In this document: positions 2 to 15,832 of the stretch, piece by piece
Position numbering within the stretch: the stretch's first letter is position 1
How the letters are laid out: every line of letters begins with the position of its first letter
Assembly: GCA_041308845.1 (NCBI GenBank)
Contig: JBFZAT010000059.1
Span: 3,378-67,377, forward strand
Reading direction: 5' to 3'
Source of the DNA: Candidatus Omnitrophota bacterium
GTDB lineage: Bacteria > Omnitrophota > Gorgyraeia > Gygaellales > Profunditerraquicolaceae
Length of the DNA: 64,000 nt
Translations under genes and position numbers: made by a program
Notes under the pieces: generated by a model
The model's database searches: none
What the model was told of the DNA's origin: nothing
What the model saw: only the letters and a program-made list of their open reading frames with translations

Positions 2-2155
2 GCCAACAATAAACATCTTTTCCATACCGATATTCCAGATAGCGTTAAACTCTGGACCGGCACCCGGCTAAATAATAACGGTACCCCGAATGACCCCGAT
101 GATGATTATGAAGAAACGCGTAGCATGGAGGATGTGATCGCTGATTGCGCTGCCTATAAGACTGGAGAATCGCCGATTCCAGCCCAATTTAACGGATTCT
201 TTACCCAGGTCTGGTCACCGACTAATTATTCTGCCGCTGCCACTTATCCTAAGTTACAATCTGGTAAGGTTTATACCGTAGCCAGTTATGTGGCTTTAGC
301 TACCGGAGCTACTTTTACTACTCCGGTTTCTTTCTCCGTAACTATCCCGCAGACCATGAGCGATATGAAGGCATCTTTGGATACCGTGCAAGCTACAGTT
401 GAAAGTACATTGAACATGCCGATTGCGACCATGGAGTCTAACTTACGCCGGATTCTGGCTGGAGATGATGCTGACCCGGATGAAATTGCCGCCCAAGGAG
501 GGATCAAAGGAATTGTAGAGCAGAAACTTGATGATCAGGAAGCGATTATCCGTGCGGCAACTGCGGATATGATGGCAGCTTTTGCTGCTGTTTTAGTGAG
601 CTTTGAGTCTAAGACCCAGGCGGCAGTAGACTTATTGGATGCCAGCTCTAAGACCGCCGAGATTGCCGGCCAAACCCTTAAAGCGACAGCTGAGAAATAT
701 TCTTGGCGTATTGCCCTTTCACCTGATCCAGCTTTACCCGGAGATGAAATAACTTTAACGGCCACCGGATTACCGAATAAAAACCCAGTATTAAGTATTT
801 ATAGTTGGGATAATAAAATCCTTTTTAATAATCAAAAATTAAAAGAGGTTGCTGCTACTCCGGGTGTTTATACTTATAAGTTTGATGTAAACAATAGATT
901 TGCTAGCGGCAAGGCTTATAGTTTTATTATGACTGAGCCGGATAGTGACGCTTTTGAAATCGGATCCGGGATGGTAGAGTCAATGAGCTTAACTACGATT
1001 GCTGGGTTGGCTTCTGCTGCTCCCGGAGCTGAGCGGGCAGCTAAGAAGGCCTTAGATGCGATTAAGGCTGTAGAAGCAGTATTAGTCAGCGGAGAGAATA
1101 TTAATATTGCCCTCACCCTGAAGAACCTGAGAGATTCCGTAGATGCCTTGCCCGGAGAGTTAGCCAAAGAAGGTCCTTCTTCACGTTTAAATAACACTGT
1201 GGATGAAATATCCGACCGATTAAAGGCTCTCGGTGGTAAAGAGGGATTGGACTTAAGCGCTTTGTTCGAAAAAGCCCTGTCTACCTCGCCGACGGTTAGA
1301 GATATGCGCGTCAAGACCGATGAGATCGGGTCAGTGATTGAGATCTTAAAACAAATCTTTGAGGCTAAGTTCGGCGGTAAAGATGCGCCGGTAGTTTCGG
1401 CCACCTTGGCTCCGGGAAGCGTAAAGTTCCGGATCATCGCGGTCAATCCTTCCTCGGATAAAACCCAATTTGTCCAGGTTAAGTATGATTTACCCGAGGA
1501 GGTTAAGCCTCAAGATATTGCAGATTTAGGGGGCCTAGACTTAGAGTATGACTCGGCCCGGTCAATCCATTATGTTTATAAAGCAGATCTTGAATTGGCT
1601 CCGAATGAAGTGCGGGTATTTGAAGTAGATGTAGAAGATATCTGGTTAATCGCCCAGGACAAAATCACGGATCTGAAATTCCGGGTAGACCAAATCCTGT
1701 CTCGCCTTGAACAAACTGCTTACTATCCTAAGGCCAAGGAAATATCAGATACCATCTATCCTAAGCTAAACGAAATTCTGGTTTCTCAGGCGGATGATAC
1801 AGTCAGCCGGGAACGGCATATTGGTGTTTACCGTCAGAATTTATTAGTGCTTGGTCAGGTTAAGGAAGATATCGCCAGGATGGAAAAGATTTTGGTAACT
1901 GCCGGCGGCCCGGCGTCTCCGGAGATGTTGGCTAAGACTAAGATTAAAGCTGATGAGCCGAATAAAACAATGACTTGGATTATTATTTTTGTTATAATCA
2001 TATTTACAGGGCTGCTGGCGGGTGTACTGTTCTTCAGCTGGAATCGTCAGTCGCGTATGGTTAAAGATGAACTCGCAGAAGCTAAAAACTCCGCCTTTCC
2101 TGAGTCCGGATTCGGGCCTGAAGAAAAAAATAAGCCCGCGGAAGGTCAATCTTAA
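2..2155 (+). CDS. Large protein of unknown function (>717 aa, 5'-partial), Ala-rich with coiled-coil-like stretches and a single C-terminal TM helix followed by a basic tail. Its stop overlaps the atpC start (TAATG)
   Basis: The reading frame stays open from position 2 to the listed ORF at 125, with no stop, so the gene runs off the window. The C-terminal hydrophobic helix IIIFVIIIFTGLLAGVLFF resembles the b-subunit anchor FIIFEIIVFTGLIFIL encoded at 2626. I recognise no catalytic motif. Confidence 0.5.
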   Translation, partial: ANNKHLFHTDIPDSVKLWTGTRLNNNGTPNDPDDDYEETRSMEDVIADCAAYKTGESPIPAQFNGFFTQVWSPTNYSAAATYPKLQSGKVYTVASYVALATGATFTTPVSFSVTIPQTMSDMKASLDTVQATVESTLNMPIATMESNLRRILAGDDADPDEIAAQGGIKGIVEQKLDDQEAIIRAATADMMAAFAAVLVSFESKTQAAVDLLDASSKTAEIAGQTLKATAEKYSWRIALSPDPALPGDEITLTATGLPNKNPVLSIYSWDNKILFNNQKLKEVAATPGVYTYKFDVNNRFASGKAYSFIMTEPDSDAFEIGSGMVESMSLTTIAGLASAAPGAERAAKKALDAIKAVEAVLVSGENINIALTLKNLRDSVDALPGELAKEGPSSRLNNTVDEISDRLKALGGKEGLDLSALFEKALSTSPTVRDMRVKTDEIGSVIEILKQIFEAKFGGKDAPVVSATLAPGSVKFRIIAVNPSSDKTQFVQVKYDLPEEVKPQDIADLGGLDLEYDSARSIHYVYKADLELAPNEVRVFEVDVEDIWLIAQDKITDLKFRVDQILSRLEQTAYYPKAKEISDTIYPKLNEILVSQADDTVSRERHIGVYRQNLLVLGQVKEDIARMEKILVTAGGPASPEMLAKTKIKADEPNKTMTWIIIFVIIIFTGLLAGVLFFSWNRQSRMVKDELAEAKNSAFPESGFGPEEKNKPAEGQS

Positions 2156-2388
2156 TGCTGTTAAACGTTTCAATTTTAAACACTAGCCGGGTAGTTTTTG
2201 AGGGGCAAGCCGGCAGTGTAATTGTAACCGGAGAGGAGGGGGTTTTTGAAATTCTCCCTTTTCATAAGCGTATTATGAGCCGTTTGATTACCGGTTCGGT
2301 TATTGTGGATCAGCAGAGTTTTCCGATCCGCCGGGGGATTATTAAAGCTGATCAAAATACAGTAACTATTATTATGGAAGAAAAATGA
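2155..2388 (+). CDS. atpC: F-type ATPase epsilon subunit, N-terminal beta-sandwich domain only (77 aa)
   Basis: VVFEGQAGSVIVTGEEGVFEILPFHKRIMSRLITGSVIV aligns to the epsilon N-domain ([29 protein letters not shown]...). There is no C-terminal helical hairpin. The stop overlaps the atpE start (ATGA). Confidence 0.7.
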   Translation: MLLNVSILNTSRVVFEGQAGSVIVTGEEGVFEILPFHKRIMSRLITGSVIVDQQSFPIRRGIIKADQNTVTIIMEEK

Positions 2389-2603
2389 GTAAAAATATTG
2401 CTTTAGTCATTATTTTTGCTTTATCTATATTAGGGCCCTGCGCAGTTTTTGCCGCAGGCAGCTTTGCTAGTATTAATGCTTTGGGCCGGAACCCTTCGAG
2501 TGCCCCGAAAATTTTTACGGCTATGATTATCGGGTTAGTTTTTGCGCAGTCTTTGGCTATTGTAGCGATGTTAATTGTATTCCAATTATTCGGAGCCTCT
2601 TAA
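2385..2603 (+). CDS. atpE: F-type ATPase c subunit (proteolipid), atypical because it has no acidic residue
   Basis: It is a 72-aa two-helix hairpin with a GRNP polar loop (canonical ARQP). Helix 2, IIGLVFAQSLAIVAM, aligns to G-ALVEALPIIG, with Gln at the ion-binding Glu/Asp position. Confidence 0.7.
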   Translation: MSKNIALVIIFALSILGPCAVFAAGSFASINALGRNPSSAPKIFTAMIIGLVFAQSLAIVAMLIVFQLFGAS

Positions 2604-2625
2604 TACTGGATAAGGAGACAATAAG

Positions 2626-3336
2626 ATGTTGATGGTTTCATTTATAATTTTTGAAATTATCGTTTTTACCGGTTTGATTTTTATCTTACGTAAAATCATG
2701 ACCCAGAATGTAATTTCGGCGACCCAGCACATCGACGAATTAAACCAGGATTATACTAAGAAAGATGAAGATATCCACCGCCGTTGGGAGGAAGTTAAGC
2801 GGCAAGCTGAGCAAATTATCCGCCAGGCTCAAGAAGAAGCTGAAAAGACCAAATCGGAGTTGATGGCTGCCGGTCAAGCCGAAAAAGATCAGATTTTAAA
2901 ACAGGCCCGCGCTAAAAGCGAAGAGATGGTTGCTCAAGCGGACAAATCTTGTCAAGCGATGCTTGCGGAAATAGAGGCGCGGGTTAGCCGGGAGGCGATG
3001 AATAAAGCAGCAGATTTAATTCATGATGTTTTGCCCGATAAATTTAAGCAGAGCGTGCATAATGAATGGGTAGAAGGGTTGATTGCCCATGGGTTTAGCC
3101 ATTTGAATAATATCAGTATTCCGGATAATGTCTTCGAAGTTTTGATTGTTTCCGCATTTCCACTTACTGCTGCCCAGCGCCAGGAGTTGACGCAAAAGCT
3201 TTCCCGGGTTTTAGAGAGAACAATTACCTTAAAAGAAGAAGTAGAACCTAAGCTTGTTGCCGGACTAATTATTAAGATTGCCAGCCTGGTTTTTGATGGA
3301 ACTTTAAAAAATAAAATTATGGAGAAGGCCCGCTAA
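2626..3336 (+). CDS. atpF: ATP synthase b subunit fused to the delta (OSCP) C-terminal domain
   Basis: It has an N-terminal TM helix and a charged coiled coil typical of b. The C-terminus, LTAAQRQELTQKLSRVLERTITLKEEVEPKLVAGLIIKIASLVFDGTLKNKIMEKAR, matches the delta C-terminus (...[34 protein letters not shown]). Confidence 0.65.
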   Translation: MLMVSFIIFEIIVFTGLIFILRKIMTQNVISATQHIDELNQDYTKKDEDIHRRWEEVKRQAEQIIRQAQEEAEKTKSELMAAGQAEKDQILKQARAKSEEMVAQADKSCQAMLAEIEARVSREAMNKAADLIHDVLPDKFKQSVHNEWVEGLIAHGFSHLNNISIPDNVFEVLIVSAFPLTAAQRQELTQKLSRVLERTITLKEEVEPKLVAGLIIKIASLVFDGTLKNKIMEKAR

Positions 3337-4820
3337 TGTCCAGCGAGATAAAATTCCCGGATCCCGGAACAGTTTTTGAGATTCGCGAGGTAGGTTTTGT
3401 GCAGAGCGTGCGTAAATTCATTGTCGTGGCTAAAGGCATGCCCAGCTGTATTAATGGCCAGATTGTTGAGTTTGCTAACGGTATTCCGGGTTTAGTGATG
3501 GGGTTTACCGAGGAAAAAGTCCAGATTTTAGTTTTAGGGGACCCGGTGGGCATTCGTGCCGGAGATGAAGTTTATAACAAGGGGAAATCTCTTAGTCTTC
3601 CGGTAGGGGAGGCTTTCGTCGGCAGGCTTGTAGATGCGCTTTGCCGTCCCCTGGATGGTTTAGGCCCAATCCAAGCCACTACCCAATTACCAGCATTTAT
3701 TGTTGCTCCCGGAGTTATGGATCGGCAGCCGGTAAATCAAACTCTGGAATCTGGTACTCTGATTATCGATGCGATTATTCCTCTGGCCAAAGGCCAGAGG
3801 CAGCTTTTAATCGGCGACCGAATTACCGGTAAAACCTCGGTAGCCTTGGATGCGATTATTAACCAGAAAGGTAAAGATGTAGTTTGTATTTATTGTTGCA
3901 TCGGTAAGCCATACTCAAGTTTAGTAAAAGTGATCAATGTTTTACGCGAAAAAGAAGCTTTGGATTACGTGATTATTGTCTCTGGCGTAGCCAGTGTTTC
4001 TACCGGAGAACAGTATTTAGCCCCCTATACTGCCTGTACTTTAGGGGAATATTTTATGAGCCAGGGTAAGGATGTATTATTGGTGGCGGATGATTTAACC
4101 AAACATGCCTGGGTGTATCGGCAAATATCTCTTTTACTAGAGCGGGCACCCGGGCGAGAAGCCTACCCGGGAGACATTTTTTATTTACACTCTCAAATGA
4201 TGGAGCGGGCCGGACTGCTTAAAAAAGAGTTAGGCGGAGGCTCAATGACCTTTTTACCGATCGTCGAAATTCTGCAGGGAGACCTTACCGGTTATATTCC
4301 GACCAACTTGATTTCGATGACCGACGGGCAGCTGTATTTCTCTACGGGGCTTTTTAATAAAGGGGTTAAGCCGGCGATTGATTTTGGTTTATCGGTCTCC
4401 CGTATTGGTAATAAAGCGCAGTGGCCGGCGATGAAGGCCTCCAGTAAATCTTTGCGGCTGGACTACCTACAGTATAAGGAACTACTGCAGATGACCCAAC
4501 TGCGCACCGCCGGACTTTCTAAAGAGGCCGAAGAGCGCCTGCGCCGGGGGGAGGCGATCAGCCAATTGATTACTCAGGATAAAAACCGTCCGGTTTCTAT
4601 CGAAGAGCAGATTATTTATTTATATTCCTTAAACCAGGGTTGGTTAGATAATTTATCGACGCAGCAGATTCGGCAATTCCGGTTGGGCATTCTGAATTAT
4701 TTCCAACAGAAAAAGCCTGCATTCTGCCAACAGATCCGCCAGAGCAAAATGCTTAGCGAAGATTTACGTTTGATGTTAGAGGAAACATTAACCGCATACT
4801 TACAGCAAGAGGTAAAGTAG
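3336..4820 (+). CDS. atpA: F-type ATPase alpha subunit
   Basis: It carries the alpha P-loop GDRITGKTS with QRQLLIGD, and the overall alpha architecture. Confidence 0.85.
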   Translation: MSSEIKFPDPGTVFEIREVGFVQSVRKFIVVAKGMPSCINGQIVEFANGIPGLVMGFTEEKVQILVLGDPVGIRAGDEVYNKGKSLSLPVGEAFVGRLVDALCRPLDGLGPIQATTQLPAFIVAPGVMDRQPVNQTLESGTLIIDAIIPLAKGQRQLLIGDRITGKTSVALDAIINQKGKDVVCIYCCIGKPYSSLVKVINVLREKEALDYVIIVSGVASVSTGEQYLAPYTACTLGEYFMSQGKDVLLVADDLTKHAWVYRQISLLLERAPGREAYPGDIFYLHSQMMERAGLLKKELGGGSMTFLPIVEILQGDLTGYIPTNLISMTDGQLYFSTGLFNKGVKPAIDFGLSVSRIGNKAQWPAMKASSKSLRLDYLQYKELLQMTQLRTAGLSKEAEERLRRGEAISQLITQDKNRPVSIEEQIIYLYSLNQGWLDNLSTQQIRQFRLGILNYFQQKKPAFCQQIRQSKMLSEDLRLMLEETLTAYLQQEVK

Positions 4821-4824
4821 ATTT

Positions 4825-5688
4825 ATGCAGACGATGGCGGTAATTAAAAAAGATATGGATTTTAACCGCGGCCTTTCTTCATTGATCGAAGTATTAAAAA
4901 ATATCGCTGTGTCACAATATCGTTCGCTAGAGCATAAATTCACTGTTTTTGATAAACTGATGAACGCCATTGAAAGCTGTTTTGAATTTATTGACCTTTC
5001 AGCTTTCCGGCACCAGTTTTTAACGCCGGCTAATCCGGCGCAATTAATTGTGGTGATTACCAGCGATAGCGGACTTTTGGGCGGTTTAAATATGCAGGTA
5101 GTTACCCGGGCCCTGGCCGGATTAGGGAATACTTCTGGTGGTCAATTGGTAGTCATTGGCGAAAGAGGAAAGATGTATGCCCGGGAAAGCCAGGTACCCT
5201 TTGTGGCCTATCCCGGAATTAGCGACGATAACCGCCTTACCCAGGCTTTGCAACTAAGAGATTATTTATTCTCCGGAATCCTGCAGAAGAAGTTCGGTGC
5301 TTTAAAAGTGGTTTATCCTCATCCGGTGTCTTTTACAGTGCAACGGGTGGAGACGGTGAATTTTCTCCCTTTTTCTATGGATTTCTTATCGAACCAACCT
5401 CAGGCCGCCGGTCAGGCCCGAATTATCAAAGAGGTTATTTTCGAATCTAAGATGGCAGATATTTTTGAATATTTGATTTATCTCTGGATGGGGCAGAAGC
5501 TTTATGACATTTTCGGCTTGAGCCGTTTATCAGAATTTGCCGCCCGCTATGTTCATCTCGAGGATAGTTTGCGCCGGCTTAAAGAGATGGATAGTAAACT
5601 AAAATTACAGTATTTTCGCATCCGGCATGAAATCATTGATCAAAGCATGCGTGAACTTTTTAGCGCCCGGTTATTGTATAATTCTTAA
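4825..5688 (+). CDS. atpG: F-type ATPase gamma subunit (divergent)
   Basis: LIVVITSDSGLLGGLNMQV matches gamma YLVVSTDRGLCGGLNINL, and the C-terminal helix aligns to the gamma C-terminus. Confidence 0.65.
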   Translation: MQTMAVIKKDMDFNRGLSSLIEVLKNIAVSQYRSLEHKFTVFDKLMNAIESCFEFIDLSAFRHQFLTPANPAQLIVVITSDSGLLGGLNMQVVTRALAGLGNTSGGQLVVIGERGKMYARESQVPFVAYPGISDDNRLTQALQLRDYLFSGILQKKFGALKVVYPHPVSFTVQRVETVNFLPFSMDFLSNQPQAAGQARIIKEVIFESKMADIFEYLIYLWMGQKLYDIFGLSRLSEFAARYVHLEDSLRRLKEMDSKLKLQYFRIRHEIIDQSMRELFSARLLYNS

Positions 5689-5719
5689 CAGTTAGAGGAG
5701 TTTATCAGGGGAATATTTT

Positions 5720-7120
5720 ATGGTTAAGGAAAAAATAAAAGGAAAAATTACTGCCGTGCAGGGGCCGGTGGTGGATGTAAAATTTGCCAGCTCTGATGAG
5801 GTACCGAATATTTATGCGATGCTCTTGACGCATACCATTGATGGTAGTGAGGTTTTTTTAGAGGTTGCTGAGCACCTGCCGGGGAACCTAGCTCGTTGTA
5901 TCTCAATTAACTCTACTACTAATATCCAACGCTATGCGCAGGCAGTTTTCTACGGCCCGTCTATCCAGATACCGGTGGGAGATGGCCTTTATGGACGTTT
6001 AATTAATGTGGTTGGTCAGGCGATTGACCAGGGCGGGGCGATCCCTTACCAGGAAAAAAATTCGATCAGGAAAACCGATATGGGCAGCCGGATGACAATT
6101 AGTAAGAATAAAGATGAGCGGCGTAGTTTTGAGGTAATGGAAACCGGTATTAAGATTATCGATTTACTGGCTCCTTTAGTTAAAGGCAGTAAAACCGGTA
6201 TTTTAGGGGGCGCCGGATTAGGCAAGAGCGTGTTAACCTTGGAAATTATCCAGCATATCGTTAAACGCTATCAGGGTAGTTGCGTTTTTGTCGGTATCGG
6301 GGAGCGTATTCGTGAAGGAAATGAGCTATATTATGAATTAAAGAATCATGATGTGTTATCTAAAACAATGATGGTTTTTGGCCAGATGAATGAGCCTCCC
6401 GGAGCGCGTTTTGCCGTGGCGATGACCGGCATTACCATGGCCGAGGCGGTGCAGAAGAAGAATCAGGATGTGTTGATGTTTTGCGATAATATCTTTCGTT
6501 TTGTGCAAGCCGGAAGTGAAATTTCTACACTCTTAGGCCGGGTGCCTTCAGAAACCGGTTATCAGCCTACCTTACTTTCGGAGGTGAGTGAGTTTCATGA
6601 GCGTATTCGCACAACTAAAGATTCGGGAGGTTCCATTACTTCTATTGAGGCGGTCTATGTGCCGGCTGATGATTTAACTGATCCAGCGGTTGTGGCGATT
6701 TTTAGTTTTCTAGATTCAGTTCTGGTTTTATCCCGCGAGCGTATCCAATTAGGTTTATATCCGGCGATTGATCCGCTTTTATCCAGTTCTTCTAATTTGG
6801 ATATCGATATCGTCGGTAAACGTCATTTCGATGTTGCCCAGGATGTCATCAGAATGTTTCAACGCTATGAAGAGTTACGCCGGATTGTTTTAGTTGTGGG
6901 TATCGATGAACTTTCTTCAAGCGACCGGATTATTTATGAGCGGGCCAGAAAAATGCAGAATTTCCTCACTCAACCGTTTTTTGTCGGAGAAGCTTATACC
7001 GGTAAAAAGGGGGTTTATGTAACCATTGAACAAACTTTGGATGGATGTGAAAGAATTATTTCTGGTAGAATGGATAATCAGCCGGAGGAAGGTTTTTATT
7101 TAATCGGAGCTTTATCATAA
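5720..7120 (+). CDS. atpD: F-type ATPase beta subunit
   Basis: It has the P-loop GGAGLGKSV, the catalytic GERIREG, MNEPPGAR, FRFVQAGSEISTLLGRVPSETGYQPTL and YVPADDLTDPA motifs. The DELSEED loop reads DELSSSD. Confidence 0.85.
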   Translation: MVKEKIKGKITAVQGPVVDVKFASSDEVPNIYAMLLTHTIDGSEVFLEVAEHLPGNLARCISINSTTNIQRYAQAVFYGPSIQIPVGDGLYGRLINVVGQAIDQGGAIPYQEKNSIRKTDMGSRMTISKNKDERRSFEVMETGIKIIDLLAPLVKGSKTGILGGAGLGKSVLTLEIIQHIVKRYQGSCVFVGIGERIREGNELYYELKNHDVLSKTMMVFGQMNEPPGARFAVAMTGITMAEAVQKKNQDVLMFCDNIFRFVQAGSEISTLLGRVPSETGYQPTLLSEVSEFHERIRTTKDSGGSITSIEAVYVPADDLTDPAVVAIFSFLDSVLVLSRERIQLGLYPAIDPLLSSSSNLDIDIVGKRHFDVAQDVIRMFQRYEELRRIVLVVGIDELSSSDRIIYERARKMQNFLTQPFFVGEAYTGKKGVYVTIEQTLDGCERIISGRMDNQPEEGFYLIGALS

Positions 7121-7147
7121 TAAAATATATTAAAAAGCGAGTAAAAG

Positions 7148-9298
7148 ATGTCTAAAAAAATCGATTTGCAGTTAGCCGAAGTATTGGTGGAAAAGAAATT
7201 GATTAACCGGGAGGATATCGGAAAATTTTTACAGGAAGCCGCAACGCTCAGCCATGATTTAAAACAGGTTTTAATCAAGCACAATTTGTTTTCTGAAAAA
7301 GAACTGCTGGATATCTTGGCCGAGAAGCTAAAATTAAGCTGCGTTAACCTTAAGGAGCTGCTGATTGATAAATCGATTATTACTAAAGTTCCTTTGAAGA
7401 TCGCTTCTTATTATAAATTTATTCCTTTGGCGCTGCGCGGCCGGACACTGACGATTGCCGTGGCTTATCCTTTAGACATTCAGACCTTGGATGAAATTAG
7501 GACTCAGCTGGGTCTGGACCTGGAGATGTCTTTGGCCTGCTCGGCGGATGTTTTAGATGATTTAAAGAAATATTACGGTTTGGCCGCCGATACCCTGGAA
7601 AAAATAAGCTCCCAGAGTCCTGCGGGGAACTTTAGCGAACAGACTAAAGTGCAAGAAGGAGTGGAAGATATTGAAAAACAGGCCACGGATGCTTCAGTGA
7701 TTAAATTAGTTAACCAGATAATTCTAGAGGGTTGGCGGAAACGGGCTACCGATATCCATATTGAGCCTTATCGCCAAGGCTTATCTTTACGCTACCGGAT
7801 TGACGGTTTACTTTACGATGCTAATGTGCCAGGGGAAATAAAAAATTTTCTTAATGCCATTGTTTCCCGGATTAAAATCATGTCGAACCTGAATATCGTT
7901 GAACGCCGCCTGCCCCAGGACGGCCGGGCGATTGTTAGGGTCCAAGATCAGGTCTTAGACCTGCGTATTTCCACTATTCCTACTCCTTTTGGAGAAAGCT
8001 TGGTGATCAGAATTCTGCCTACCCAGATGCTCTTTAGCCTGGAGAAACTGGGTTTAGCCAAGAGTGAATTGCAGATCTTTGAAAAATTAGTTCAGAAGCC
8101 GCACGGTATAATATTCGTTACCGGCCCCACTGGCAGCGGTAAGACGACCACCCTTTATTCTTGCCTGACCAGGATTAACACCAAAGACCGTAAAATTATT
8201 ACCATCGAAGACCCGATCGAATATGAGATGAGCGGGATTACGCAGATCCAGGTAATGCCGGAGATCGGGCTGGATTTTGCCCGCGGCCTGCGCAGCATTT
8301 TAAGGCATGATCCGGATGTAATTATGGTGGGAGAAGTAAGGGATTTTGAAACTGCTGAAACAGCCATCCGGGTGGCTTTAACCGGGCATTTAGTATTTTC
8401 TTCTTTACATACTAACGATGCCGCCAGCGGAATCGCCCGCCTGCAGGATATCGGAGTAGAACCTTACTTGATTGCTTCTAGCGTGGAGGCTTTTATTGCT
8501 CAACGTTTGATCCGGGTGATTTGTCCGGAATGCCGTTTTGAAGATAAAAATGCGCCTTTAGAATTAAGGGAGTTGATTGCTAAAGATTTGGGAATTAAAT
8601 TAGAAGAGGTAAAAATATTCCGGGGTAAAGGTTGTGCCCATTGTAACGCTACCGGGTTTTTTGGCCGTACGGCTATCTACGAAATCCTAATCGTCGATGA
8701 TCTAACTAAGGAGATGATTTTAAAGAAAGCTTCTTCGGATCAAATTAAAAGGCTGGCTTTATCCAAAGGCATGCGGACTTTGCGCCAGGACGGTTGGAAA
8801 AAAACGATCAGCGGGATTACTACTTTTGAAGAAGTAATCCGGGTAACTTCGGCTCAACAGGAGGATCTTTTGGTCAAAGAGACTCCGGCTCAAGAGCGCG
8901 GATATACTAAATCGGAGCTGCCGCCGCAGCCGGAAGGATCAAATAAACGTATTTATCAACGTTTAGATAATAAAGTTAAAGTGCGCTATAAAGTTTTTGA
9001 AACCGAAAAAGAATTGATTAAGCGTAAAGAAATCACTGAGGAAATCAGCGCGACAAAAAATATTTCTGCCGGAGGTTTACTTTTTATTGCTCAGGAGCAG
9101 TTAACTATAGGTGCAATATTAGAGCTTAAGATTCAATTACCTAGCAGCCAGGAGTTGGTTGAATGCTTAGCCAGGGTGACTAGGGTGGAGGAAATGCTTG
9201 AGCCGGGAGAATATGATATTGCAGTTTGTTTCCTGGATTTAACCAGCGCTGATAGGATTAGATTAGATAAATTCGTGAAGCTAGAAAGCGGAGGTTAA
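7148..9298 (+). CDS. gspE: Type II secretion / type IV pilus assembly ATPase (GspE/PilB family) with an N-terminal T2SSE_N/MshEN-like domain and a C-terminal PilZ domain
   Basis: Walker A is GPTGSGKTTT. The tetracysteine motif is CPEC...CAHC. The C-terminal ~140 aa carry RIYQR (RxxxR) and NISAGGLLF ((D/N)xSxGG), which are PilZ c-di-GMP-binding signatures. Confidence 0.8.
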   Translation: MSKKIDLQLAEVLVEKKLINREDIGKFLQEAATLSHDLKQVLIKHNLFSEKELLDILAEKLKLSCVNLKELLIDKSIITKVPLKIASYYKFIPLALRGRTLTIAVAYPLDIQTLDEIRTQLGLDLEMSLACSADVLDDLKKYYGLAADTLEKISSQSPAGNFSEQTKVQEGVEDIEKQATDASVIKLVNQIILEGWRKRATDIHIEPYRQGLSLRYRIDGLLYDANVPGEIKNFLNAIVSRIKIMSNLNIVERRLPQDGRAIVRVQDQVLDLRISTIPTPFGESLVIRILPTQMLFSLEKLGLAKSELQIFEKLVQKPHGIIFVTGPTGSGKTTTLYSCLTRINTKDRKIITIEDPIEYEMSGITQIQVMPEIGLDFARGLRSILRHDPDVIMVGEVRDFETAETAIRVALTGHLVFSSLHTNDAASGIARLQDIGVEPYLIASSVEAFIAQRLIRVICPECRFEDKNAPLELRELIAKDLGIKLEEVKIFRGKGCAHCNATGFFGRTAIYEILIVDDLTKEMILKKASSDQIKRLALSKGMRTLRQDGWKKTISGITTFEEVIRVTSAQQEDLLVKETPAQERGYTKSELPPQPEGSNKRIYQRLDNKVKVRYKVFETEKELIKRKEITEEISATKNISAGGLLFIAQEQLTIGAILELKIQLPSSQELVECLARVTRVEEMLEPGEYDIAVCFLDLTSADRIRLDKFVKLESGG

Positions 9299-9303: not shown

Positions 9304-10521
9304 ATGGTAAAGTATAATTATCGGGCCAAGAAAGGGCTCCAGGAGATAGTCAGCGGTACGATAGAAGCTGCTTCGGAAAAAGAGGCCATTGAAAAAATCA
9401 GTGCTTTAGGGTATCTGCCCGTGCACCTGGAAGAGAATAAGGGTCCTGCTCAGGCCTCGATTTTAACCACGCCTAAATCTTACGGCAGGATAGGTTCCGG
9501 TCAGATTACTATTTTTAGCCGGCAGTTGGCCAGCCTTTTAAAATCCGGGGTTCCGATATTATCCGCGATAAATATTATTAAAGAACAATCGGAAAACATG
9601 AATTTAAAAGCGGTGCTGGTTGATATCTATAATGAGATTAAGAATGGAGGTACTTTTTCGTCTTCCCTGGAGGCTCACCCCAAATATTTTTCTGTTTTGT
9701 ACGTAGCGATGGTGCGCACCGGGGAGAATAGCGGAGCTTTAGCTGGTTCGCTTTTAAGGATTGCGGATTACCGGGCTAAACAAGAAGAATTGCTTTCGCG
9801 TTTGCGCATGGCGATGGCTTATCCGCTACTTATGGCTTTAGTCGGAGTGGCTACGGTGGTATTTATGCTTACTTTTGTGATGCCTAGGTTAATGGGGATA
9901 TTTTCTAGTCTGGGCCAGAATCTCCCGCTGCCGACTAAGATTTTATTGGCTATCAGCCAAGGTCTGCGCCAGTGGTGGCCGGGAATAATCTTAAGTCTGG
10001 GGGTAGTGGTTTTTTTGATCAAACAGCAGTTAAAAACTAAAATTGGTAAAATTTCCTGGAGCATTCTAAAATTGCATATACCGATTTTTGGGAAATTCGT
10101 GTTAAAAGCGGATCTGGCTTGTTTTAGCCGGACTTTAGAGCTGTTAATTAAAAGCGGCCTGCCGATACTTAGGGCGCTGCAGATATCCGTTCAGGTATTA
10201 AGCAATGAAGTGATCAAGGAAAAGTTAATTAAAAGCCATCGTGATCTGGAACAGGGGGGATCTTTTGGCCAGAGCATGAAAGATTCTAAATTGCTGCCTT
10301 TGTTTATGGTGAACTTAATCAGCGTCGGCGAAGAATCCGGTAACCTGGCTGCGGCCTTAGGAGAAGTAGCGGATTGCTATGAACGTGATACCGATGAAAC
10401 CGTCAGGATAATGAGCAGCTTACTTGAACCACTAATGATCTTGGTTATGGGTTTAATCGTGGGTTTTATTGTGGTAGCCATGTTATTGCCGATATTTGAA
10501 ATTAACATGATGGCTAAATAA
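9304..10521 (+). CDS. gspF: T2SS/T4P inner-membrane platform protein (GspF/PilC family)
   Basis: It has the duplicated T2SSF-like architecture, 405 aa, three TM segments, and sits immediately downstream of the ATPase. Confidence 0.75.
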   Translation: MVKYNYRAKKGLQEIVSGTIEAASEKEAIEKISALGYLPVHLEENKGPAQASILTTPKSYGRIGSGQITIFSRQLASLLKSGVPILSAINIIKEQSENMNLKAVLVDIYNEIKNGGTFSSSLEAHPKYFSVLYVAMVRTGENSGALAGSLLRIADYRAKQEELLSRLRMAMAYPLLMALVGVATVVFMLTFVMPRLMGIFSSLGQNLPLPTKILLAISQGLRQWWPGIILSLGVVVFLIKQQLKTKIGKISWSILKLHIPIFGKFVLKADLACFSRTLELLIKSGLPILRALQISVQVLSNEVIKEKLIKSHRDLEQGGSFGQSMKDSKLLPLFMVNLISVGEESGNLAAALGEVADCYERDTDETVRIMSSLLEPLMILVMGLIVGFIVVAMLLPIFEINMMAK

Positions 10522-10526: not shown

Positions 10527-11387
10527 ATGACGAATATAAGAATGAAGCTATTTTTAGTTATTTTATTGGGTCTATGTTCTTTGGCCGCCGGTTACCCCGG
10601 GAACTGGTCAGAGAAAAAAAGCGAGCATTTTATCGTCTATTTCACCCAGGATGAAAAGTTCGCCCAGGATGTATTGCATAGAGCAGAGCAGGATTACCGC
10701 CGTATCGCTCACGATTTAGGGTATGCGCGGTATTCGGAATTTTGGACCTGGGATAAAAGAGTGAAAATTTACATCTATCCAGAGCGGAATGCTTTCTTAA
10801 AAGCGACCAACCAACCTTCTTGGTCAGAAGGGATGGCTGATTATACCAATAAGCATATCGTCAGCTATGCCTGGGGCAAAGGGTTTGTAGAGTCGCTTCT
10901 ACCGCATGAGATTGCGCATTTAGTTTTCCGCGATTTTGTAGGCTTTAAGGGAGAGATTCCTCTTTGGCTGGATGAAGGTGTAGCGCAGTGGGCCGAAGAA
11001 GCTAAACGTAAGGAGATTAAGAGCCTGATACAGCGATATTTTCAGCAGGATAATTTACTTTTAGTGAGCGATATCATGAAACTGAATATTGAGAATCTTA
11101 AAGGTAAACAGGGGTTATTGATCCGGGCCACCCGGACCAAAGACGATAAAGACGGAGTACTTTTCTTAAGCGCTAACAATTTAATCGAAATTTATTATCT
11201 TCAATCTGTTTCGCTGGTGGGTTATTTAATTGAGAAATTCGGCTCTACCGCTTTTTCCGGGTTTTGCCGTGAACTACGCGATGGGCGCAGCGTAGAGGAA
11301 GCTTTGAGGGTTGCCTATCCTTTACGCATCCGTGATATTAAAGAGTTCGAGGATGGCTGGAGGGAATATTTAAAGACAGGTAATTGA
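10527..11387 (+). CDS. Secreted putative zinc metallopeptidase, MA clan (Peptidase_MA_2-like)
   Basis: It has a signal peptide, HEIAH (HExxH) and a downstream WLDEGVAQW (third-ligand Glu in the WxxEGxAxY/W context). It is embedded between gspF and gspG. Confidence 0.45.
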   Translation: MTNIRMKLFLVILLGLCSLAAGYPGNWSEKKSEHFIVYFTQDEKFAQDVLHRAEQDYRRIAHDLGYARYSEFWTWDKRVKIYIYPERNAFLKATNQPSWSEGMADYTNKHIVSYAWGKGFVESLLPHEIAHLVFRDFVGFKGEIPLWLDEGVAQWAEEAKRKEIKSLIQRYFQQDNLLLVSDIMKLNIENLKGKQGLLIRATRTKDDKDGVLFLSANNLIEIYYLQSVSLVGYLIEKFGSTAFSGFCRELRDGRSVEEALRVAYPLRIRDIKEFEDGWREYLKTGN

Positions 11388-11402: not shown

Positions 11403-11834
11403 ATGATCATGAATAAAGCGCAAAAAGGTAGAGTTCAATCAAATGGTTTTACGCTGATCGAATTAATGTTGGTAGTGGTAATTATCGGGGCATTGGTAGC
11501 GATGGTCATGCCTAGGCTTACCGGTAGAGGAGAACAGGCCCGGGTGGCAGCAGCTAGCGCGGATATTAATGCTAATATTGCTACTGCTTTAAAACTTTAC
11601 GAATTGGATAATGGCAATTTTCCCAGTTCCTCTGAAGGGTTAAAGGCTTTATTAGTTAAACCTTCATCAGTGAAGAATTGGAATGGGCCTTATTTAGAAA
11701 GAAAACCGGTTGATCCTTGGGGCCGGGAATATGAATATAAATCTCCGGGTGAGCATCGCAAAGCCGATTATGATTTATACTCTTTAGGTAAGGATGGGGT
11801 AGAGAGTGTTGATGATGTTACAAACTGGGAATAA
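11403..11834 (+). CDS. gspG: T2SS major pseudopilin GspG
   Basis: It has the prepilin leader SNG|FTLIELMLVVVIIG and the GspG C-terminal signature NWNGPY...DPWGREYEYKSPG...DYDLYSLGKDG. Confidence 0.85.
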   Translation: MIMNKAQKGRVQSNGFTLIELMLVVVIIGALVAMVMPRLTGRGEQARVAAASADINANIATALKLYELDNGNFPSSSEGLKALLVKPSSVKNWNGPYLERKPVDPWGREYEYKSPGEHRKADYDLYSLGKDGVESVDDVTNWE

Positions 11835-12228
11835 GGCAAGCATAAAGAGTCCTGTTAGAGGCTTTAGTCTGCTGGAGGTGATGATTGCCGCAGCGGTGCT
11901 GGCTTTGGGGGCGACATTAATTTATCAGTCTTTTTTTACCGCGGTTGATTCTTTTAATTATTATTCCGCTCTTTTAAAAATAACCCCTTGGATGGATGAG
12001 CAGATTTGGCAAGCCCAGAATGAGCTTAGCCGTCCGGGTTCAGGAGCTAATCTGCCCTCCGGCGGTCGGCTGGAAATTAATAATAAGGTTGTGGATTGGA
12101 GTTTAACTTACCATGCTCTAGATCAATCTATGAACCTTTACCAGATTGACTTGGCTCTTTTCTGGCCGCAAGGGGCCAGGCAAGTCAAATTATCGAGATC
12201 CGCTTATGCGATTCATACGCAAGAATAA
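11806..12228 (+). CDS. Minor pseudopilin (GspH/GspI-like)
   Basis: It has the prepilin-type N-terminus RG|FSLLEVMIAAAVLALG and is of small size. Confidence 0.55.
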   Translation: MLMMLQTGNKASIKSPVRGFSLLEVMIAAAVLALGATLIYQSFFTAVDSFNYYSALLKITPWMDEQIWQAQNELSRPGSGANLPSGGRLEINNKVVDWSLTYHALDQSMNLYQIDLALFWPQGARQVKLSRSAYAIHTQE

Positions 12229-12790
12229 TTCAGGTTTTAGTCTGGTTGAGCTTCTGGTAGTCATGGTTATGCTCAGCGTAATTTCTTTAGCTATCTATTC
12301 AACCTTTAATAATGGTTTTAAAATATGGCAAAAGGTTAATCAGCCTTTAGAGCAGCAAGATTTGGGTATTTTCTTTGATAAGTTGGCTCAAGATTTAAGC
12401 AACTGCTTGCATTCTGCCAATATCCCTTTTTCCGGTAGCCTGAATACCCTGACTATACCGACCTTAGTTTTTAGCCCGCGCTTAAAGATAAAAAGTTTAG
12501 GTTCGGTAGATTATTTTTACGATCCGCAAGCCGGATTTGTGTATCGTCAAACTAAGGATTTCAGCCAGCTTTATAACCGGCAACAAGAGAGTCCGGTGCT
12601 CCTATTAAAGGAGATTAGATTTTTTAGATTTGAATATTATTACTTTGACGCAGAGAAACAAACTTATTTGTGGCAAGAAGAATGGTTAAGCACGGGTTTA
12701 CCTCTGGCGGTTAGGGTAGTGCTAGGTTTTAATGATTCCGATGAGAATAACCAATTTATCCGGACAATCAGTGTTCCGATCGGCGCTTAA
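12206..12790 (+). CDS. Minor pseudopilin (GspJ-like)
   Basis: It has the prepilin-type N-terminus NSG|FSLVELLVVMVMLS, reached from the internal ATG at 12206. The listed ORF start at 12146 is probably too far upstream. Confidence 0.55.
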   Translation: MRFIRKNNSGFSLVELLVVMVMLSVISLAIYSTFNNGFKIWQKVNQPLEQQDLGIFFDKLAQDLSNCLHSANIPFSGSLNTLTIPTLVFSPRLKIKSLGSVDYFYDPQAGFVYRQTKDFSQLYNRQQESPVLLLKEIRFFRFEYYYFDAEKQTYLWQEEWLSTGLPLAVRVVLGFNDSDENNQFIRTISVPIGA

Positions 12791-13784
12791 GTCCAAAGGA
12801 AGTATTTTAATTCTGGCTTTATGGTCGCTTTGTTTATTATCGGCGTTTGCCGTTATTTTAAATTATCAAATTCGCCAAGCGCTGGTTTTAGCCAGCCGGA
12901 TTGATCAGAAAGATAAAATGCGCTGGATTGCCGCTGCCGGGGTAGCTAAGGTTATGGCGGAATTAAAGCATAGCCCAGCGCAGACCTACGATTATTTAGC
13001 TGACCCCTGGAGTAATAATCCTGCCGCTTTCCGGGATATTCCGGTAGGAGACGGCGAATTTACCCTAGAATATTTTTATCCAGATACCTACTCTGCTGTT
13101 GCCCAAGCAGGTTACGGTTGTGTGGATGAAGAACGTAAGCTTAATATTAATCAGGTTGAGCCGGAAGTTTTAACCCGTTTTTTCCGGGTAGTTTTATCGG
13201 TTGATGAATCGCTGGCTCAAGAATTAGCCGCTTGCATTGTGGATTGGAGGGATGCAGATAGCCAGCTTTCTATTCCTACCGGGAGTGCGGAATATTTTTA
13301 TTATAGCAGCCTGCCTTTTTCTTATCCGGCTAAAAATGCCGATTTTGAGGTTCTAGAGGAGTTGTTGCTGGTTAAAGGTTTTAGCGAGAATGTTTTTGAA
13401 AAAATAAAAGACTATGTTACTATTTATGGATCCGGCCGGGTGAATATTAATACCACTACGCAGGTTATCTTATTTGCCCTGGGGTTAGATGAAGATTTGG
13501 CGGCCAAGATTATTTTATACCGCATGGGTCCGGACGGATTGGGCCAGACACCGGATGATAACGTTTTTGTTTCTCAATCGGAGATTGTGCCCAAGTTAAG
13601 TCAATTTTATGCTTTCAGTTCTGCACAGATTGATCAGTTGAATCGGATAGTTTCTCAGTATATCGCGGTTGGCTCCAATAACTTTTTGATTAAGTCTACG
13701 GCTAAATTGTCCGGAAAGAATACTTTAACTGTATTTAGTGTAGTTAATCGAGATGGCAAAGTTCTTTACTGGCGGGAAAATTGA
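12732..13784 (+). CDS. gspK: T2SS minor pseudopilin GspK-like
   Basis: It has a hydrophobic N-terminal segment, 350 aa, a GRVNINTTT (xNxNTA-like) motif and a helix-hairpin-helix-like region typical of GspK. Confidence 0.55.
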   Translation: MIPMRITNLSGQSVFRSALKSKGSILILALWSLCLLSAFAVILNYQIRQALVLASRIDQKDKMRWIAAAGVAKVMAELKHSPAQTYDYLADPWSNNPAAFRDIPVGDGEFTLEYFYPDTYSAVAQAGYGCVDEERKLNINQVEPEVLTRFFRVVLSVDESLAQELAACIVDWRDADSQLSIPTGSAEYFYYSSLPFSYPAKNADFEVLEELLLVKGFSENVFEKIKDYVTIYGSGRVNINTTTQVILFALGLDEDLAAKIILYRMGPDGLGQTPDDNVFVSQSEIVPKLSQFYAFSSAQIDQLNRIVSQYIAVGSNNFLIKSTAKLSGKNTLTVFSVVNRDGKVLYWREN

Positions 13785-13787: not shown

Positions 13788-15269
13788 ATGTTTAAAATTA
13801 AAATGAAAAAGTTTAAATTTTTTTCCAGGCTTGCCCACCAGGAAATGGTCGGGGTTAATCTCAGCGGGAATAATTTAAAAATCTCTCATCTAAAGATTTC
13901 TCCGAACAAGAAAGAGGTAGTTAATCTTTTGAATTTAGATATTACCGCGCTTAACGATATTGAGATCGCTAAAAAAATCCAGGTAGCTATCGGGGCTCTC
14001 CGGGGTAAAGCGGTGGAGATTATTGATTTGCTTCCTACGCATTTGGTAATTACCAAAAATATCGAAGTTCCTTCTATCGAAAAAAAAGAGATTAAGGAGA
14101 TTCTCAACCTGCAGGCCGGCCGGCATACTCCTTATTCCCGAGAAGAAATAATCGTAGATTATGTTGAAATCGGTACCTATAAAAATAGCTATACTAAGGT
14201 ACTTTTAGTGATTGTGGCTCGCAGCGTTGTTAAGCGGCATTATGAAATATTGGAACGGGCAGGTTTTAGGCTTAAGCAGGCTCTTCTGGCTTCGGAAGGA
14301 ATGGCTTTGGCTGTTTTTAAAACTTTAAGGCTGGAGAATGAAAGCGCGCCGGTCAACATTCTGCATGTTGATGAAAACTTTACGGATTTTAGCGTCGTTT
14401 TTAAAAACCGGGTTATTTTTATCCGTTCTATCCCGATCGGGGCCTCTCAGCTCAAACAAGAAAAAGAAGTTTACCAGCTGAAGTTTATCGACGAGCTTAA
14501 AAGATCGTTGGAGGCTTATTTAGGCGGAGATATTGAAATCAGCCCGAATATGCTTATTTTAACCGGAGCCGAGGACGGCCTGAAAGAAATTGAAACTTTG
14601 CTTAACAGCACAATGCATTTACCGATTAAAACCTTGTCGTATTCCGGTATGTTTAATATTTCAGAGCTAGCCCGCGGAGCAATGTTTAAATCCCGGCAAA
14701 TATCTTTTTTTGATGTAATTGCTCCGCTTTTAAACTGTCCGGAGCTCAAGATTGATCTGGTGCCGGAGGAAGCCCGGGTGCGCCGCTCACTTGAGGAAAG
14801 AGGCAAAGATTTGATTAAAACCGGTATTTTTATCTTAAGTATTTTTATTATTGTTTTCTTTATTCTAGCCAGTAAAATCTATTTCCATGGTGTTCAGCTA
14901 AACAGGTTAGAACGTAAATATTCTACGGTTAACCGGGAAGCCAAAGAGCTAGAGAAAGACCTGGTTAAAATAGGGTTGGTGAAGAATTATCTGACTAATC
15001 GGGGCTATTCTTTAGAAATTTTGACTCAGTTACACGGTTTAGTTTCTGCTGATATTGAGTTGAGCGAAATTCGCTATGACCTAGATAAATTCTCCATTAA
15101 AGGTTCGGCGGATGCCATGAGTTCGGTTTTTTCATTTGTCGACCGGCTGGAAAAGTCCGAATATTTCAAGGAGGTTAAAACCCGCTATACCACTAAGCGC
15201 AAAGACGGTTTGAGGGATTTAACGGATTTCGAAATTATTACTTTGACCGAAAGGCCTAAGGATCGATGA
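13788..15269 (+). CDS. GspL-like protein: a PilM-type actin-like cytoplasmic domain, a TM helix, and a PilN-like periplasmic domain
   Basis: The N-terminal ~350 aa resemble PilM. A single TM helix follows (IFILSIFIIVFFILA), then a ~120-aa periplasmic segment. Confidence 0.6.
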   Translation: MFKIKMKKFKFFSRLAHQEMVGVNLSGNNLKISHLKISPNKKEVVNLLNLDITALNDIEIAKKIQVAIGALRGKAVEIIDLLPTHLVITKNIEVPSIEKKEIKEILNLQAGRHTPYSREEIIVDYVEIGTYKNSYTKVLLVIVARSVVKRHYEILERAGFRLKQALLASEGMALAVFKTLRLENESAPVNILHVDENFTDFSVVFKNRVIFIRSIPIGASQLKQEKEVYQLKFIDELKRSLEAYLGGDIEISPNMLILTGAEDGLKEIETLLNSTMHLPIKTLSYSGMFNISELARGAMFKSRQISFFDVIAPLLNCPELKIDLVPEEARVRRSLEERGKDLIKTGIFILSIFIIVFFILASKIYFHGVQLNRLERKYSTVNREAKELEKDLVKIGLVKNYLTNRGYSLEILTQLHGLVSADIELSEIRYDLDKFSIKGSADAMSSVFSFVDRLEKSEYFKEVKTRYTTKRKDGLRDLTDFEIITLTERPKDR

Positions 15270-15832
15270 AGCTGCCTAATTTACAGTTTTTACAGGTATT
15301 TGTAGGGAAGTTATCTAAAAAAGACCGTTTGATTTTTTACCTTACGGTTTTTATGGTTTCATTATTGATTTTAGACCGGGCAATTGTTTCTCCCGTTTTT
15401 TCTAAAATCAAATCCTTAAATAATCAGGTCCGCGATAAGCAGGCCGAGATTAAAAAAAATTTACGGCTGCTAGCGCAGAAAGACAGAATTATTACCGGAA
15501 GTGTTAAATACAGCTCTTTTTTAGGTGATGCCCGGCTGAGCGATGACCAGCAGGTCACTTTAGTACTGAAAGAATTGGAAAGTCTAGCTAGCAAGAGTTC
15601 GGTATATTTAGTAGATATGAAACCGGCGGGGGTCAAAACATCGGGTTCTTCAAAAATAATCATGATCAATCTGAATTGTGAAGCCCAAATGGAGCAGTTG
15701 GTGAATTTTATGTATAATCTAGAGAATTCCAATAGTTTGATTTCGATAGAGAAATATCAACTGGTTCCTAAAACCAGAGAATCCAGCGTAGCTAAATGCA
15801 GCATATCTGTGTATAAGATCGTAGCGCTATAA
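15266..15832 (+). CDS. GspM/PilO-like bitopic membrane protein
   Basis: It has an N-proximal TM helix, is 188 aa, and its position after the GspL-like gene matches canonical T2SS order. Confidence 0.45.
   Translation: MKLPNLQFLQVFVGKLSKKDRLIFYLTVFMVSLLILDRAIVSPVFSKIKSLNNQVRDKQAEIKKNLRLLAQKDRIITGSVKYSSFLGDARLSDDQQVTLVLKELESLASKSSVYLVDMKPAGVKTSGSSKIIMINLNCEAQMEQLVNFMYNLENSNSLISIEKYQLVPKTRESSVAKCSISVYKIVAL

Follow-up and report, generated by a model that had tools for sequence, protein, structure and literature searches.

Background

The canonical bacterial F1Fo ATP synthase is encoded by an operon of the order atpIBEFHAGDC, and the carboxylate of its c-ring is indispensable for ion translocation, which Escherichia coli D61 mutants lose. 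Outside the synthases and the ion pumps, we know of only two F-type derivatives that have been characterised, the F1-like X0 motors of Mycoplasma. Here we analyze an F-type ATPase gene cluster that opens a stretch of 64,000 nucleotides from Candidatus Omnitrophota (positions 3,378 to 67,377 of contig JBFZAT010000059.1; this whole stretch is called the window in what follows). The cluster lies between the 3' part of a gene for a large extracytoplasmic protein, open reading frame 1 (ORF1), and a series of genes resembling those of type II secretion systems (T2SS) and type IV pili (T4P). We found no subunit a in its vicinity, and we lean, with moderate confidence, towards the view that it encodes a mechanical motor that would hydrolyze ATP without being coupled to ions and would act on the anchored, usually giant ORF1 protein.

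The type 2 and type 3 clusters of Mycoplasma encode a protein with 12 transmembrane (TM) segments, a small cytoplasmic protein, gamma-, epsilon-, alpha- and beta-like subunits and a large protein with a signal peptide (PMC12994834). The large protein has two C-terminal TM helices, and the alpha-like subunit is devoid of the N-terminal helix by which alpha attaches to the peripheral stalk (PMC12994834). The type 2 enzyme (G1-ATPase) drives gliding, and the MIB-MIP antibody-cleavage system depends on the type 3 enzyme; the motors are proposed to act on a surface protein by transmitting force through the membrane (PMC12994834). The N-ATPases, which are considered to be extra copies that do not synthesise ATP, have the gene order atpDCQRBEFAG, and possess subunit a, AtpQ, AtpR and a c subunit with the full set of Na+ ligands (PMC2881411).

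With respect to the Omnitrophota themselves, Seymour et al. 2023 (PMC10066038) describe a 'symbiotic', non-respiratory F-type ATPase (sF-ATPase) that lies beside type IVa pilus (T4aP) genes in all classes of the phylum, with the ATPase and the T4aP cluster within 10 kb of each other in 57 of 66 contigs. There, the sF-ATPase is defined by the phylogeny of alpha and beta together with this co-location; alpha is placed outside the respiratory clade and likened to the Mycoplasma type 2/3 ATPases. The assignment to type 2/3 is not reproduced by the profile hidden Markov model (HMM) scores obtained here. The cluster in the window matches this sF-ATPase/T4aP entity: it comes from an omnitrophotan, and its alpha and beta genes lie within 10 kb of the T2SS-like cluster (beta ends at 7120 and GspE begins at 7148). 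An initial annotation of the window, made from the sequence without database searches, had missed that the class was already reported in PMC10066038 and that ORF1 and the T2SS-like genes are integral to the system. The architectural details found here appear to be new; the text and supplements of that paper, as searched, are silent on subunits a and c, the b-delta fusion, the truncated epsilon and alpha, and ORF1. Hence, the class is known in outline, while the anatomy of the cluster appears to be undescribed in the papers searched. A survey of complete Omnitrophota genomes (10.64898/2026.06.07.730766) recorded alpha and beta in 125 of 176 genomes and gamma in 30 of 176, and read these counts as an incomplete F1Fo, the F-type gamma being said to 'fail' the KO thresholds. 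The same survey found V/A-type ATPase subunits in 70-99% of the Gorgyraeia outside the Pluralincolimonadales (10.64898/2026.06.07.730766).

Conservation and gene order

The family was delineated by two independent scans. In the first, species-representative genomes were searched with beta as the query, yielding 80 loci with beta 60-94% identical; in the second, metagenomes were searched with an alignment of a conserved C-terminal module of ORF1 (see below) as the seed, yielding 80 more loci. Homologues that are 75-93% identical to the beta of the window are annotated as Candidatus Omnitrophota. Wherever the flanks allow, the loci of the first scan display the order ORF1, epsilon, c, b-delta, alpha, gamma, beta, (a small MshEN gene), GspE, GspF, Peptidase_MA_2 protein, pseudopilin. 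In the second scan epsilon directly follows the module in every locus with downstream DNA, and is succeeded by the same genes. Even remote relatives of the module, with 25-31% identity, adjoin an a-less cluster, albeit in rearranged orders such as module-alpha-alpha'-epsilon-c-b-delta-gamma-beta-GspE-GspF or module-alpha-epsilon-c-...-b-delta-gamma-beta-GspE. That the set of components survives both rearrangement and duplication of alpha argues that it forms one functional unit. One cluster of module relatives is labelled Verrucomicrobiota, suggesting that the family may extend beyond the Omnitrophota. In one remote variant (L172; related loci carry L numbers) a Y1 (IS200-like) transposase gene is found between b-delta and gamma (14269-14610), and GspF is split into two ORFs.

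Loss of the carboxylate and absence of subunit a

In the c subunit of the window the column of E. coli Asp61 is occupied by Gln55 (CAG, nt 2547-2549), 20 residues after the invariant arginine of the c-subunit RNP loop, and the whole protein contains neither an aspartate nor a glutamate. Among 107 unique c subunits we observed glutamine in this column in 51, glutamate in 39, alanine in 4, phenylalanine in 3, valine, leucine and threonine in 2 each, and serine in 1 (entropy 1.94 bits), with methionine in a remote relative (L171). The column is one of the more variable ones in an otherwise highly conserved protein, and on a beta tree of 53 loci at least 16 changes of state from an inferred glutamate ancestor are required at this site. 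In 64% of the c subunits, including that of the window, the carboxylate has been replaced with no other acidic residue in the membrane. The initial description of the c subunit as carboxylate-less is accurate for the window but not for the family as a whole, of which about 36% keep glutamate. The loop in contact with gamma and epsilon (positions 28-47) has an entropy below 0.5 bits at most of its positions, and R35-N36-P37 is invariant. This invariance of the contact loop suggests that F1 is probably still coupled to the c-ring. Other features that stand out are a helix 1 that is about 5 residues shorter than its E. coli counterpart in the window protein, a GxGxGxG packing motif that is partly missing, a near-invariant Pro18 and a nearly invariant FQLF at the C-terminus; the c-ring may be unusual in its size and packing.

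No subunit a (ATP-synt_A) was detected among the ORFs of the 64-kb window with three or more predicted TM segments, these being DoxX, M48, FtsX, MlaE, LptF/G, Mem_trans and similar proteins. When E. coli AtpB and AtpI were run against the window and 164 related loci, neither gave a match (E>1); the other seven E. coli subunits, used in the same way, each found their homologues there. No unassigned ORF with four or more TM segments lies in or beside the cluster in 80 genome loci, and some 170 related loci revealed neither subunit a nor AtpI in the surrounding 10 kb or so. The absence of atpB and atpI between or beside the ATPase genes, first noticed in the window, is borne out by these searches. 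Given that the carboxylate is lost and that subunit a and AtpI are missing, the enzyme of the window organism and of most of its relatives would be unable to couple its rotation to a flow of H+ or Na+, and would be neither an ion-driven synthase nor an ion pump. Taken across the family, these comparisons show that the predicted Omnitrophota ATPase does not need the c-ring carboxylate and would be a consumer of ATP rather than an ATP synthase. The a-less architecture seen throughout the family and the freely varying carboxylate column support the earlier proposal that the cluster is an F1-plus-partial-Fo module and probably not a proton-driven synthase; PMC10066038 independently applies the label non-respiratory to the Omnitrophota ATPase.

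Catalytic head and stalk

The catalytic residues of the F1 head are strongly conserved. Beta retains both the Walker A motif (GGA[AG]LGK[ST]) and GERxREG in 106 of 106 sequences, while alpha retains Walker A (GDRITGKT in the window) in 97 of 100 and the arginine finger SVSRIG in 99 of 100. The best matches of both subunits in the PDB are canonical bacterial F1 structures, with beta scoring 473 bits to 2qe7 and 347 bits to the beta subunit of the Mycoplasma mobile G1-ATPase.

Several elements typical of synthases are missing from this head and from the stalk. Epsilon is 74-84 aa long in most relatives and is without its C-terminal helices family-wide. The DELSEED motif of beta takes the form DELS[ASKHG..][ASGT]D, with the loss of acidic residues. 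In the b-delta fusion of the window, whose counterparts are 236-250 aa long in most relatives, the OSCP match is confined to positions 100-166 of 172, and residues 167-234 match delta 105-171 in the PDB search; the N-terminal domain of delta is absent. The part of alpha that precedes the beta-barrel is reduced to 13 unconserved residues in the window and to 13-17 residues in the family. This truncation matches the missing N-terminal domain of delta, as would be expected if interacting elements were lost together. The short epsilon, the fusion of b to the C-terminal domain of delta, the neutralised DELSEED and the absence of subunit a are family-wide features seen in over 100 loci, and all three of the subunit peculiarities that the initial annotation had reported (epsilon as a beta-sandwich only, b fused to the C-terminal domain of delta alone, and a partly neutralised DELSEED) have held up on closer scrutiny. 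Judging from its conserved residues, the F1 head is predicted to be catalytically competent, a working hydrolase without synthase-type controls.

In some remote variants alpha occurs as two tandem paralogues (L166, 6624-9549; L168, 3605-6536; L171, 7859-10766; L080, 2859-5816). In the three of these that were checked (L166, L168 and L171) the second paralogue keeps Walker A and is missing the SVSRIG arginine finger, pointing to an F1 head of heteromeric or asymmetric build.

The large extracytoplasmic partner

ORF1, the gene immediately upstream of epsilon, is open at the start of the window and encodes more than 717 aa with a single TM helix at aa 658-680 (nt 1973-2041). It had been introduced as an unknown membrane-anchored protein of this minimum size; the size and the TM helix stand, but rather than a bystander it is an obligatory partner of the ATPase and is usually giant. 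Its most conserved part is a C-terminal module of about 270 aa (Table 1), for which the AlphaFold2 (AF2) model has a pLDDT of 82.9. The TM helix of this module has an invariant flanking tryptophan and invariant residues at i, i+3, i+6 and i+9, and is followed by a tail with the motif AK..AFP (nt 2081-2104). The remainder of the visible protein is predicted to consist of alternating Ig-like sandwiches and helical bundles. Searches of Pfam and NCBIfam with ORF1 recovered nothing significant, with a sub-threshold match to Pex19 and weak Ig-like matches on the longer homologues.

In all 11 loci with a full 10-kb flank, the ORF1 homologue stays open over 3,600 aa or more. The two longest have minimum lengths of 4,308 aa (L081) and 5,481 aa (L170), and in every case the end of the contig cuts the gene. 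The only TM segment seen in any of them is the C-terminal one. The module is thereby predicted usually to terminate a giant Ig-repeat protein of more than 5,000 aa. Contigs of 75-212 kb (L081, L083, L086 and L170) end on their 5' side inside the ORF1 homologue, with a run of N in L170 at this point. Assemblies probably break in the giant gene, given that long contigs repeatedly end there.

The module family comprises 825 clusters at 50% identity, and occurs in giant proteins, as a stand-alone protein and in 2-3 tandem copies. In about 12 lineages the module is encoded by a stand-alone gene whose product starts with a Sec-type signal peptide. In one relative (L169, 617-2674, P0275), a protein with a signal peptide carries two copies of the module and, after its TM helix, a GGDEF diguanylate cyclase domain at the C-terminus; epsilon follows. 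The position of the GGDEF domain after the TM helix in this one relative, along with the signal peptides, indicates that the tail of ORF1 is cytoplasmic and the module periplasmic. The same protein ties the system to cyclic-di-GMP signalling.

The published 'giant genes' of Omnitrophota (10.1101/2023.11.21.568195) are described as having a T2SS-like locus before them, pilZ genes after them and many TM regions. ORF1 might be one of them, though its visible part does not fit that description. The two papers on Omnitrophota giant genes mention T2SS/T4P neighbors but no F-type ATPase neighbor.

Relationship to other rotary and F1-like ATPases

The cluster resembles canonical F1Fo in the order c-b-delta-alpha-gamma-beta, in the catalytic residues of F1 and in the RNP loop of the c hairpin, and the profile thresholds for alpha and beta are exceeded. 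It differs in having no subunit a, no AtpI, no conserved Asp/Glu in c and no full delta/OSCP, the C-terminal domain of delta being fused to b. Further differences are the absence of the N-terminal helix of alpha and the C-terminal helices of epsilon, the neutralised DELSEED, and the shorter helix 1 of c with its near-invariant proline. The gene order had been called non-canonical, which is true of the leading epsilon and the missing atpI and atpB, but not of the order c-b(delta)-alpha-gamma-beta, which is itself canonical.

With the N-ATPases the cluster shares the absence of a separate delta gene and a long b subunit whose C-terminal region aligns with the C-terminus of delta; indeed, TIGR03321 provides the most extensive match to b (residues 34-216). 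Nevertheless, membership in this family was rejected, as the scores fall below the alt_F1F0 cut-offs for alpha (508 vs 750), beta (494 vs 752), gamma (36 vs 282) and b (49 vs 225), the gene order differs, subunit a, AtpQ and AtpR are missing from the cluster, which has no extra membrane proteins, and its c subunit has no acidic residue or ESTxxY motif.

The Mycoplasma type 2/3 systems, which the initial annotation had put forward for comparison, offer a parallel in layout and function: a large anchored extracytoplasmic partner, a truncated N-terminus of alpha and no ion path. However, X0 has no homologues of a, b, c or delta, whereas the Omnitrophota cluster keeps c and b-delta; ORF1 has one TM helix against two in the Mycoplasma partner, and its likeness to MMOB1650/MMCAP2_0577 is one of layout. 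Unlike the Mycoplasma system, the Omnitrophota host has LptF/G genes for the export of lipopolysaccharide to an outer membrane, and its cluster is linked to T2SS-like genes. The comparison does not extend to family membership by HMM scores, which on the type 2/3 models are 409 (cut-off 600) and 285 (520) for alpha, and 425 (850) and 412 (570) for beta. On the same models E. coli AtpA obtains 412 and 312, and AtpD 495 and 427. Because its scores come no closer than those of E. coli, we classify the cluster as working like an F1-like X0 motor and not as a member of that family by these thresholds; the deep sister-group relationship drawn in PMC10066038 may still apply. A further comparison that had been drawn, with the type III secretion system and the flagellar FliI-FliJ pair, proved to be remote: export ATPases of the FliI/SctN type were rejected at 165-194 bits against cut-offs of 380-619 and by the presence of separate alpha and beta genes.

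The V-ATPase accessory proteins Ac45/ATP6AP1 and PRR span the membrane once, as type-I proteins: a bulky extracytoplasmic domain leads into a C-terminal TM helix, and a short tail lies in the cytoplasm. In the Vo core, the helices of Ac45 and PRR are located inside the c-ring (PMC7979754). The C-terminal TM helix of yeast Voa1 likewise lies within the ring. The ORF1 module shares the topology of these accessory proteins, which we regard as an analogy only. Unlike the Omnitrophota cluster, V-ATPases have both subunit a and the carboxylates, and they are proton pumps.

Functional interpretation

We favor, with the moderate confidence expressed at the outset, a motor that hydrolyzes ATP, is not coupled to ions and acts mechanically on the giant protein. 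In such a motor the F1 head (alpha3beta3, gamma and the short epsilon) would sit on the c-ring and be held by the b-delta stalk, and ATP hydrolysis would turn gamma, epsilon and the c-ring against this stator. The c-ring would serve as a transmembrane shaft or anchor instead of an ion turbine, and the motion would pass to the anchor of ORF1, so as to move, tension or reset the giant envelope protein. The setting might be attachment, motility on hosts, or attack and predation on host cells, and the giant surface protein, the motor and the endopilus system would then constitute one candidate apparatus for attachment or predation. A large family that keeps c and b while discarding the ion path would offer a cleaner system for studying extracytoplasmic proteins driven by F1, and is relevant to a possible origin of the Mycoplasma motors from F1Fo. 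It would likewise explain why Omnitrophota are scored as having an 'incomplete F1Fo', and these alpha and beta genes would be no evidence for chemiosmotic ATP synthesis.

A more specific version has the c-ring as a drive shaft, in which the TM helix and tail of ORF1 would dock in or on the ring, so that rotation is delivered to the giant protein. We offer this tentatively, as a possibility suggested by the V-ATPase analogy, and the same tentative standing applies to its being in addition a living intermediate between F1Fo and the F1-like X0 motors of Mycoplasma. If true, the drive shaft would be a new ATP-powered rotary surface machine in a bacterium apparently endowed with an outer membrane.

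Several observations weigh against a motor of this kind. Rotation, the contact of ORF1 with the ring or the stalk, and the biological output are deduced from the genes. Alpha passes the atpA cut-offs (572.7 vs 554 for NF009884 and 538.6 vs 484 for TIGR00962), as does beta the NCBIfam atpD cut-off (560.3 vs 462.9). The glutamate of c persists in 39 of the 107 sequences, and some of these lineages might still bind ions. The search for atpB covered the window and, in the related loci, flanks of about 10 kb, and an orphan atpB elsewhere in the genome is conceivable. The full-length giant ORF1 was never recovered, every long contig ending inside the gene, and structure searches with ORF1 returned generic Ig-like and helical-bundle matches alone.

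The main competing explanation is that the motor energises the secretion, unfolding or membrane insertion of the giant ORF1 protein, or else assists the T2SS/T4P-like endopilus; FliI-FliJ at the flagellar export gate is a loose analogue. In nearly all related loci, the genes of the ATPase separate the giant gene from those of GspE, GspF and the pseudopilins within what looks like a single operon; this pairing outlasts the rearrangement of gene order, and a giant extracytoplasmic protein needs a dedicated solution for its export or folding. Yet, the T2SS-like system already has its own GspE ATPase, and we know of no F1 with polypeptide-translocating activity. Moreover, since the module persists as a stand-alone Sec protein of 270 aa, a permanent subunit fits better than a substrate. 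On balance we consider a role in export unlikely, though it deserves to be taken seriously.

Considerably less probable is a non-rotating scaffold or sensor, that is, a membrane platform for nucleotide binding engaged in, for example, regulation linked to cyclic-di-GMP. Rotation is only deduced, and cyclic-di-GMP modules are indeed common around the cluster (MshEN and PilZ on GspE, the separate MshEN gene and the one GGDEF domain). However, the conservation of Walker A, the catalytic glutamate, the arginine finger, gamma, the beta-sandwich of epsilon and the loop of c is more than a platform needs.

An ordinary, if divergent, F1Fo synthase or ion pump, with subunit a encoded elsewhere or borrowed in the lineages that retain glutamate, would account for the canonical scores and intact catalytic residues of alpha and beta, for the homologues of c, b, the C-terminal domain of delta, gamma and epsilon, and for the glutamate-bearing c subunits. 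It is hard to reconcile with the replacement of the carboxylate in most c subunits, with the lack of atpB and atpI within 10 kb at some 170 loci, with the loss of the N-terminal domain of delta and the N-terminal helix of alpha, and with a synteny that strictly ties the cluster to the genes of a giant surface protein and of a T2SS-like system. It also sits poorly with the published placement of alpha outside the respiratory clade, and with the V/A-type or separate respiratory F-type enzymes reported in the phylum, and the present data already point to purifying selection on the cluster. We regard it as very improbable.

The loss of subunit a, the N-terminal domain of delta, the C-terminal domain of epsilon and the carboxylate might also bring to mind an ATP synthase operon in decay; this view is effectively refuted by the conservation data, namely seven intact genes in over 150 loci, beta sequences 60-94% identical, an invariant loop in c, 825 clusters of the partner module, and a component set kept through rearrangement and alpha duplication.

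Gene organization and the T2SS/T4P-like genes

ORF listing and profile searches place the ATPase genes (2-7120) on one strand and partly overlapping, and every gene placement of the initial annotation was confirmed (Table 1). The stop and start codons overlap at the ORF1/epsilon (TAATG), epsilon/c (ATGA) and b-delta/alpha junctions, and across the whole array, through 16354, the spacing of adjacent genes ranges from -83 to +48 nt. ORF1, the ATPase genes and the T2SS/T4P-like genes appear, by their layout, to form one co-transcribed unit. The first strong terminator-like hairpin 3' of the array is, by pattern match alone, the likely 3' end of this operon. A promoter scan was at chance level, with 37 found against 37.3 expected.

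Table 1. Coordinates (window numbering) and features of the genes and elements of the ATPase-T2SS/T4P-like array.
Feature	Coordinates	Strand	Remarks
ORF1, C-terminal 717 aa of a large to giant extracytoplasmic protein	2-2155	+	Ig-like and helical repeats; open at window start
ORF1, conserved ~270-aa C-terminal module	1343-2155	+	beta-sandwich, three-helix bundle, TM helix, short tail
epsilon	2155-2388	+	77 aa; PF02823 beta-sandwich domain only, positions 1-78/80
c subunit	2385-2603	+	72 aa; PF00137 26.6 bits vs cut-off 24
b-delta(C-terminal domain) fusion	2626-3336	+	236 aa; N-terminal TM, b-like coiled coil, then OSCP part
alpha	3336-4820	+	Walker A and Arg finger intact
gamma	4825-5688	+	divergent; 80 bits vs TIGR01146 cut-off 194
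beta	5720-7120	+	Walker A GGAGLGKS, catalytic motif GERIREG, DELSSSD
GspE/PilB-type ATPase	7148-9298	+	N-terminal MshEN, C-terminal PilZ; both annotated as cyclic-di-GMP-binding
GspF/PilC platform protein	9304-10521	+
Secreted Peptidase_MA_2 metallopeptidase-like protein	10527-11387	+	signal peptide, HEIAH; conserved within cluster
GspG-like major pseudopilin	11403-11834	+
Minor pseudopilin	11806-12228	+
Minor pseudopilin, GspJ-like	12146-12790	+
Minor pseudopilin, GspK-like	12732-13784	+
PilM-PilN fusion	13788-15269	+
GspM-like protein	15266-15832	+
157-aa protein without assignment	15881-16354	+
Terminator-like hairpin	16401-16427	+	11-bp stem, then T run

Where related loci extend downstream of beta, GspE nearly always comes after it, and by its architecture in the window a single secretion ATPase carries two putative receptors for cyclic-di-GMP. 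In most relatives (most of L008-L164) a gene of about 155 aa that encodes MshEN only is inserted between beta and GspE, as in L081 (11422-11889); this separate gene is missing in the window (7120-7148) and in its closest relatives L001-L006 and L086. The Peptidase_MA_2 protein keeps its position between GspF and the major pseudopilin in most related loci, and it might process the pseudopilins or the giant protein. No secretin was detected among the window ORFs that were scanned.

Additional observations

Downstream of the array, the window has a group of isoprenoid/carotenoid-type genes (17411-23182) that includes an amine oxidase (phytoene-desaturase-like), LytB, squalene/phytoene synthase and polyprenyl synthase, with a lycopene cyclase domain protein inside the group at 20659-20967. 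A tRNA-Leu(CAG) gene is found at 61264-61347 and a tmRNA gene, with the tag ANTQVSRLGTFVQPSLAARPMFVPAFGLN, at 63042-63448. The GC skew is positive in all 2-kb bins of the window (1-64000). The interval from 12 to 64 kb contains 54 ORFs with a length of 120 aa or more, of which 46 are on the plus strand. The skew and the strand bias of the genes are consistent with a single replichore with strong co-orientation.

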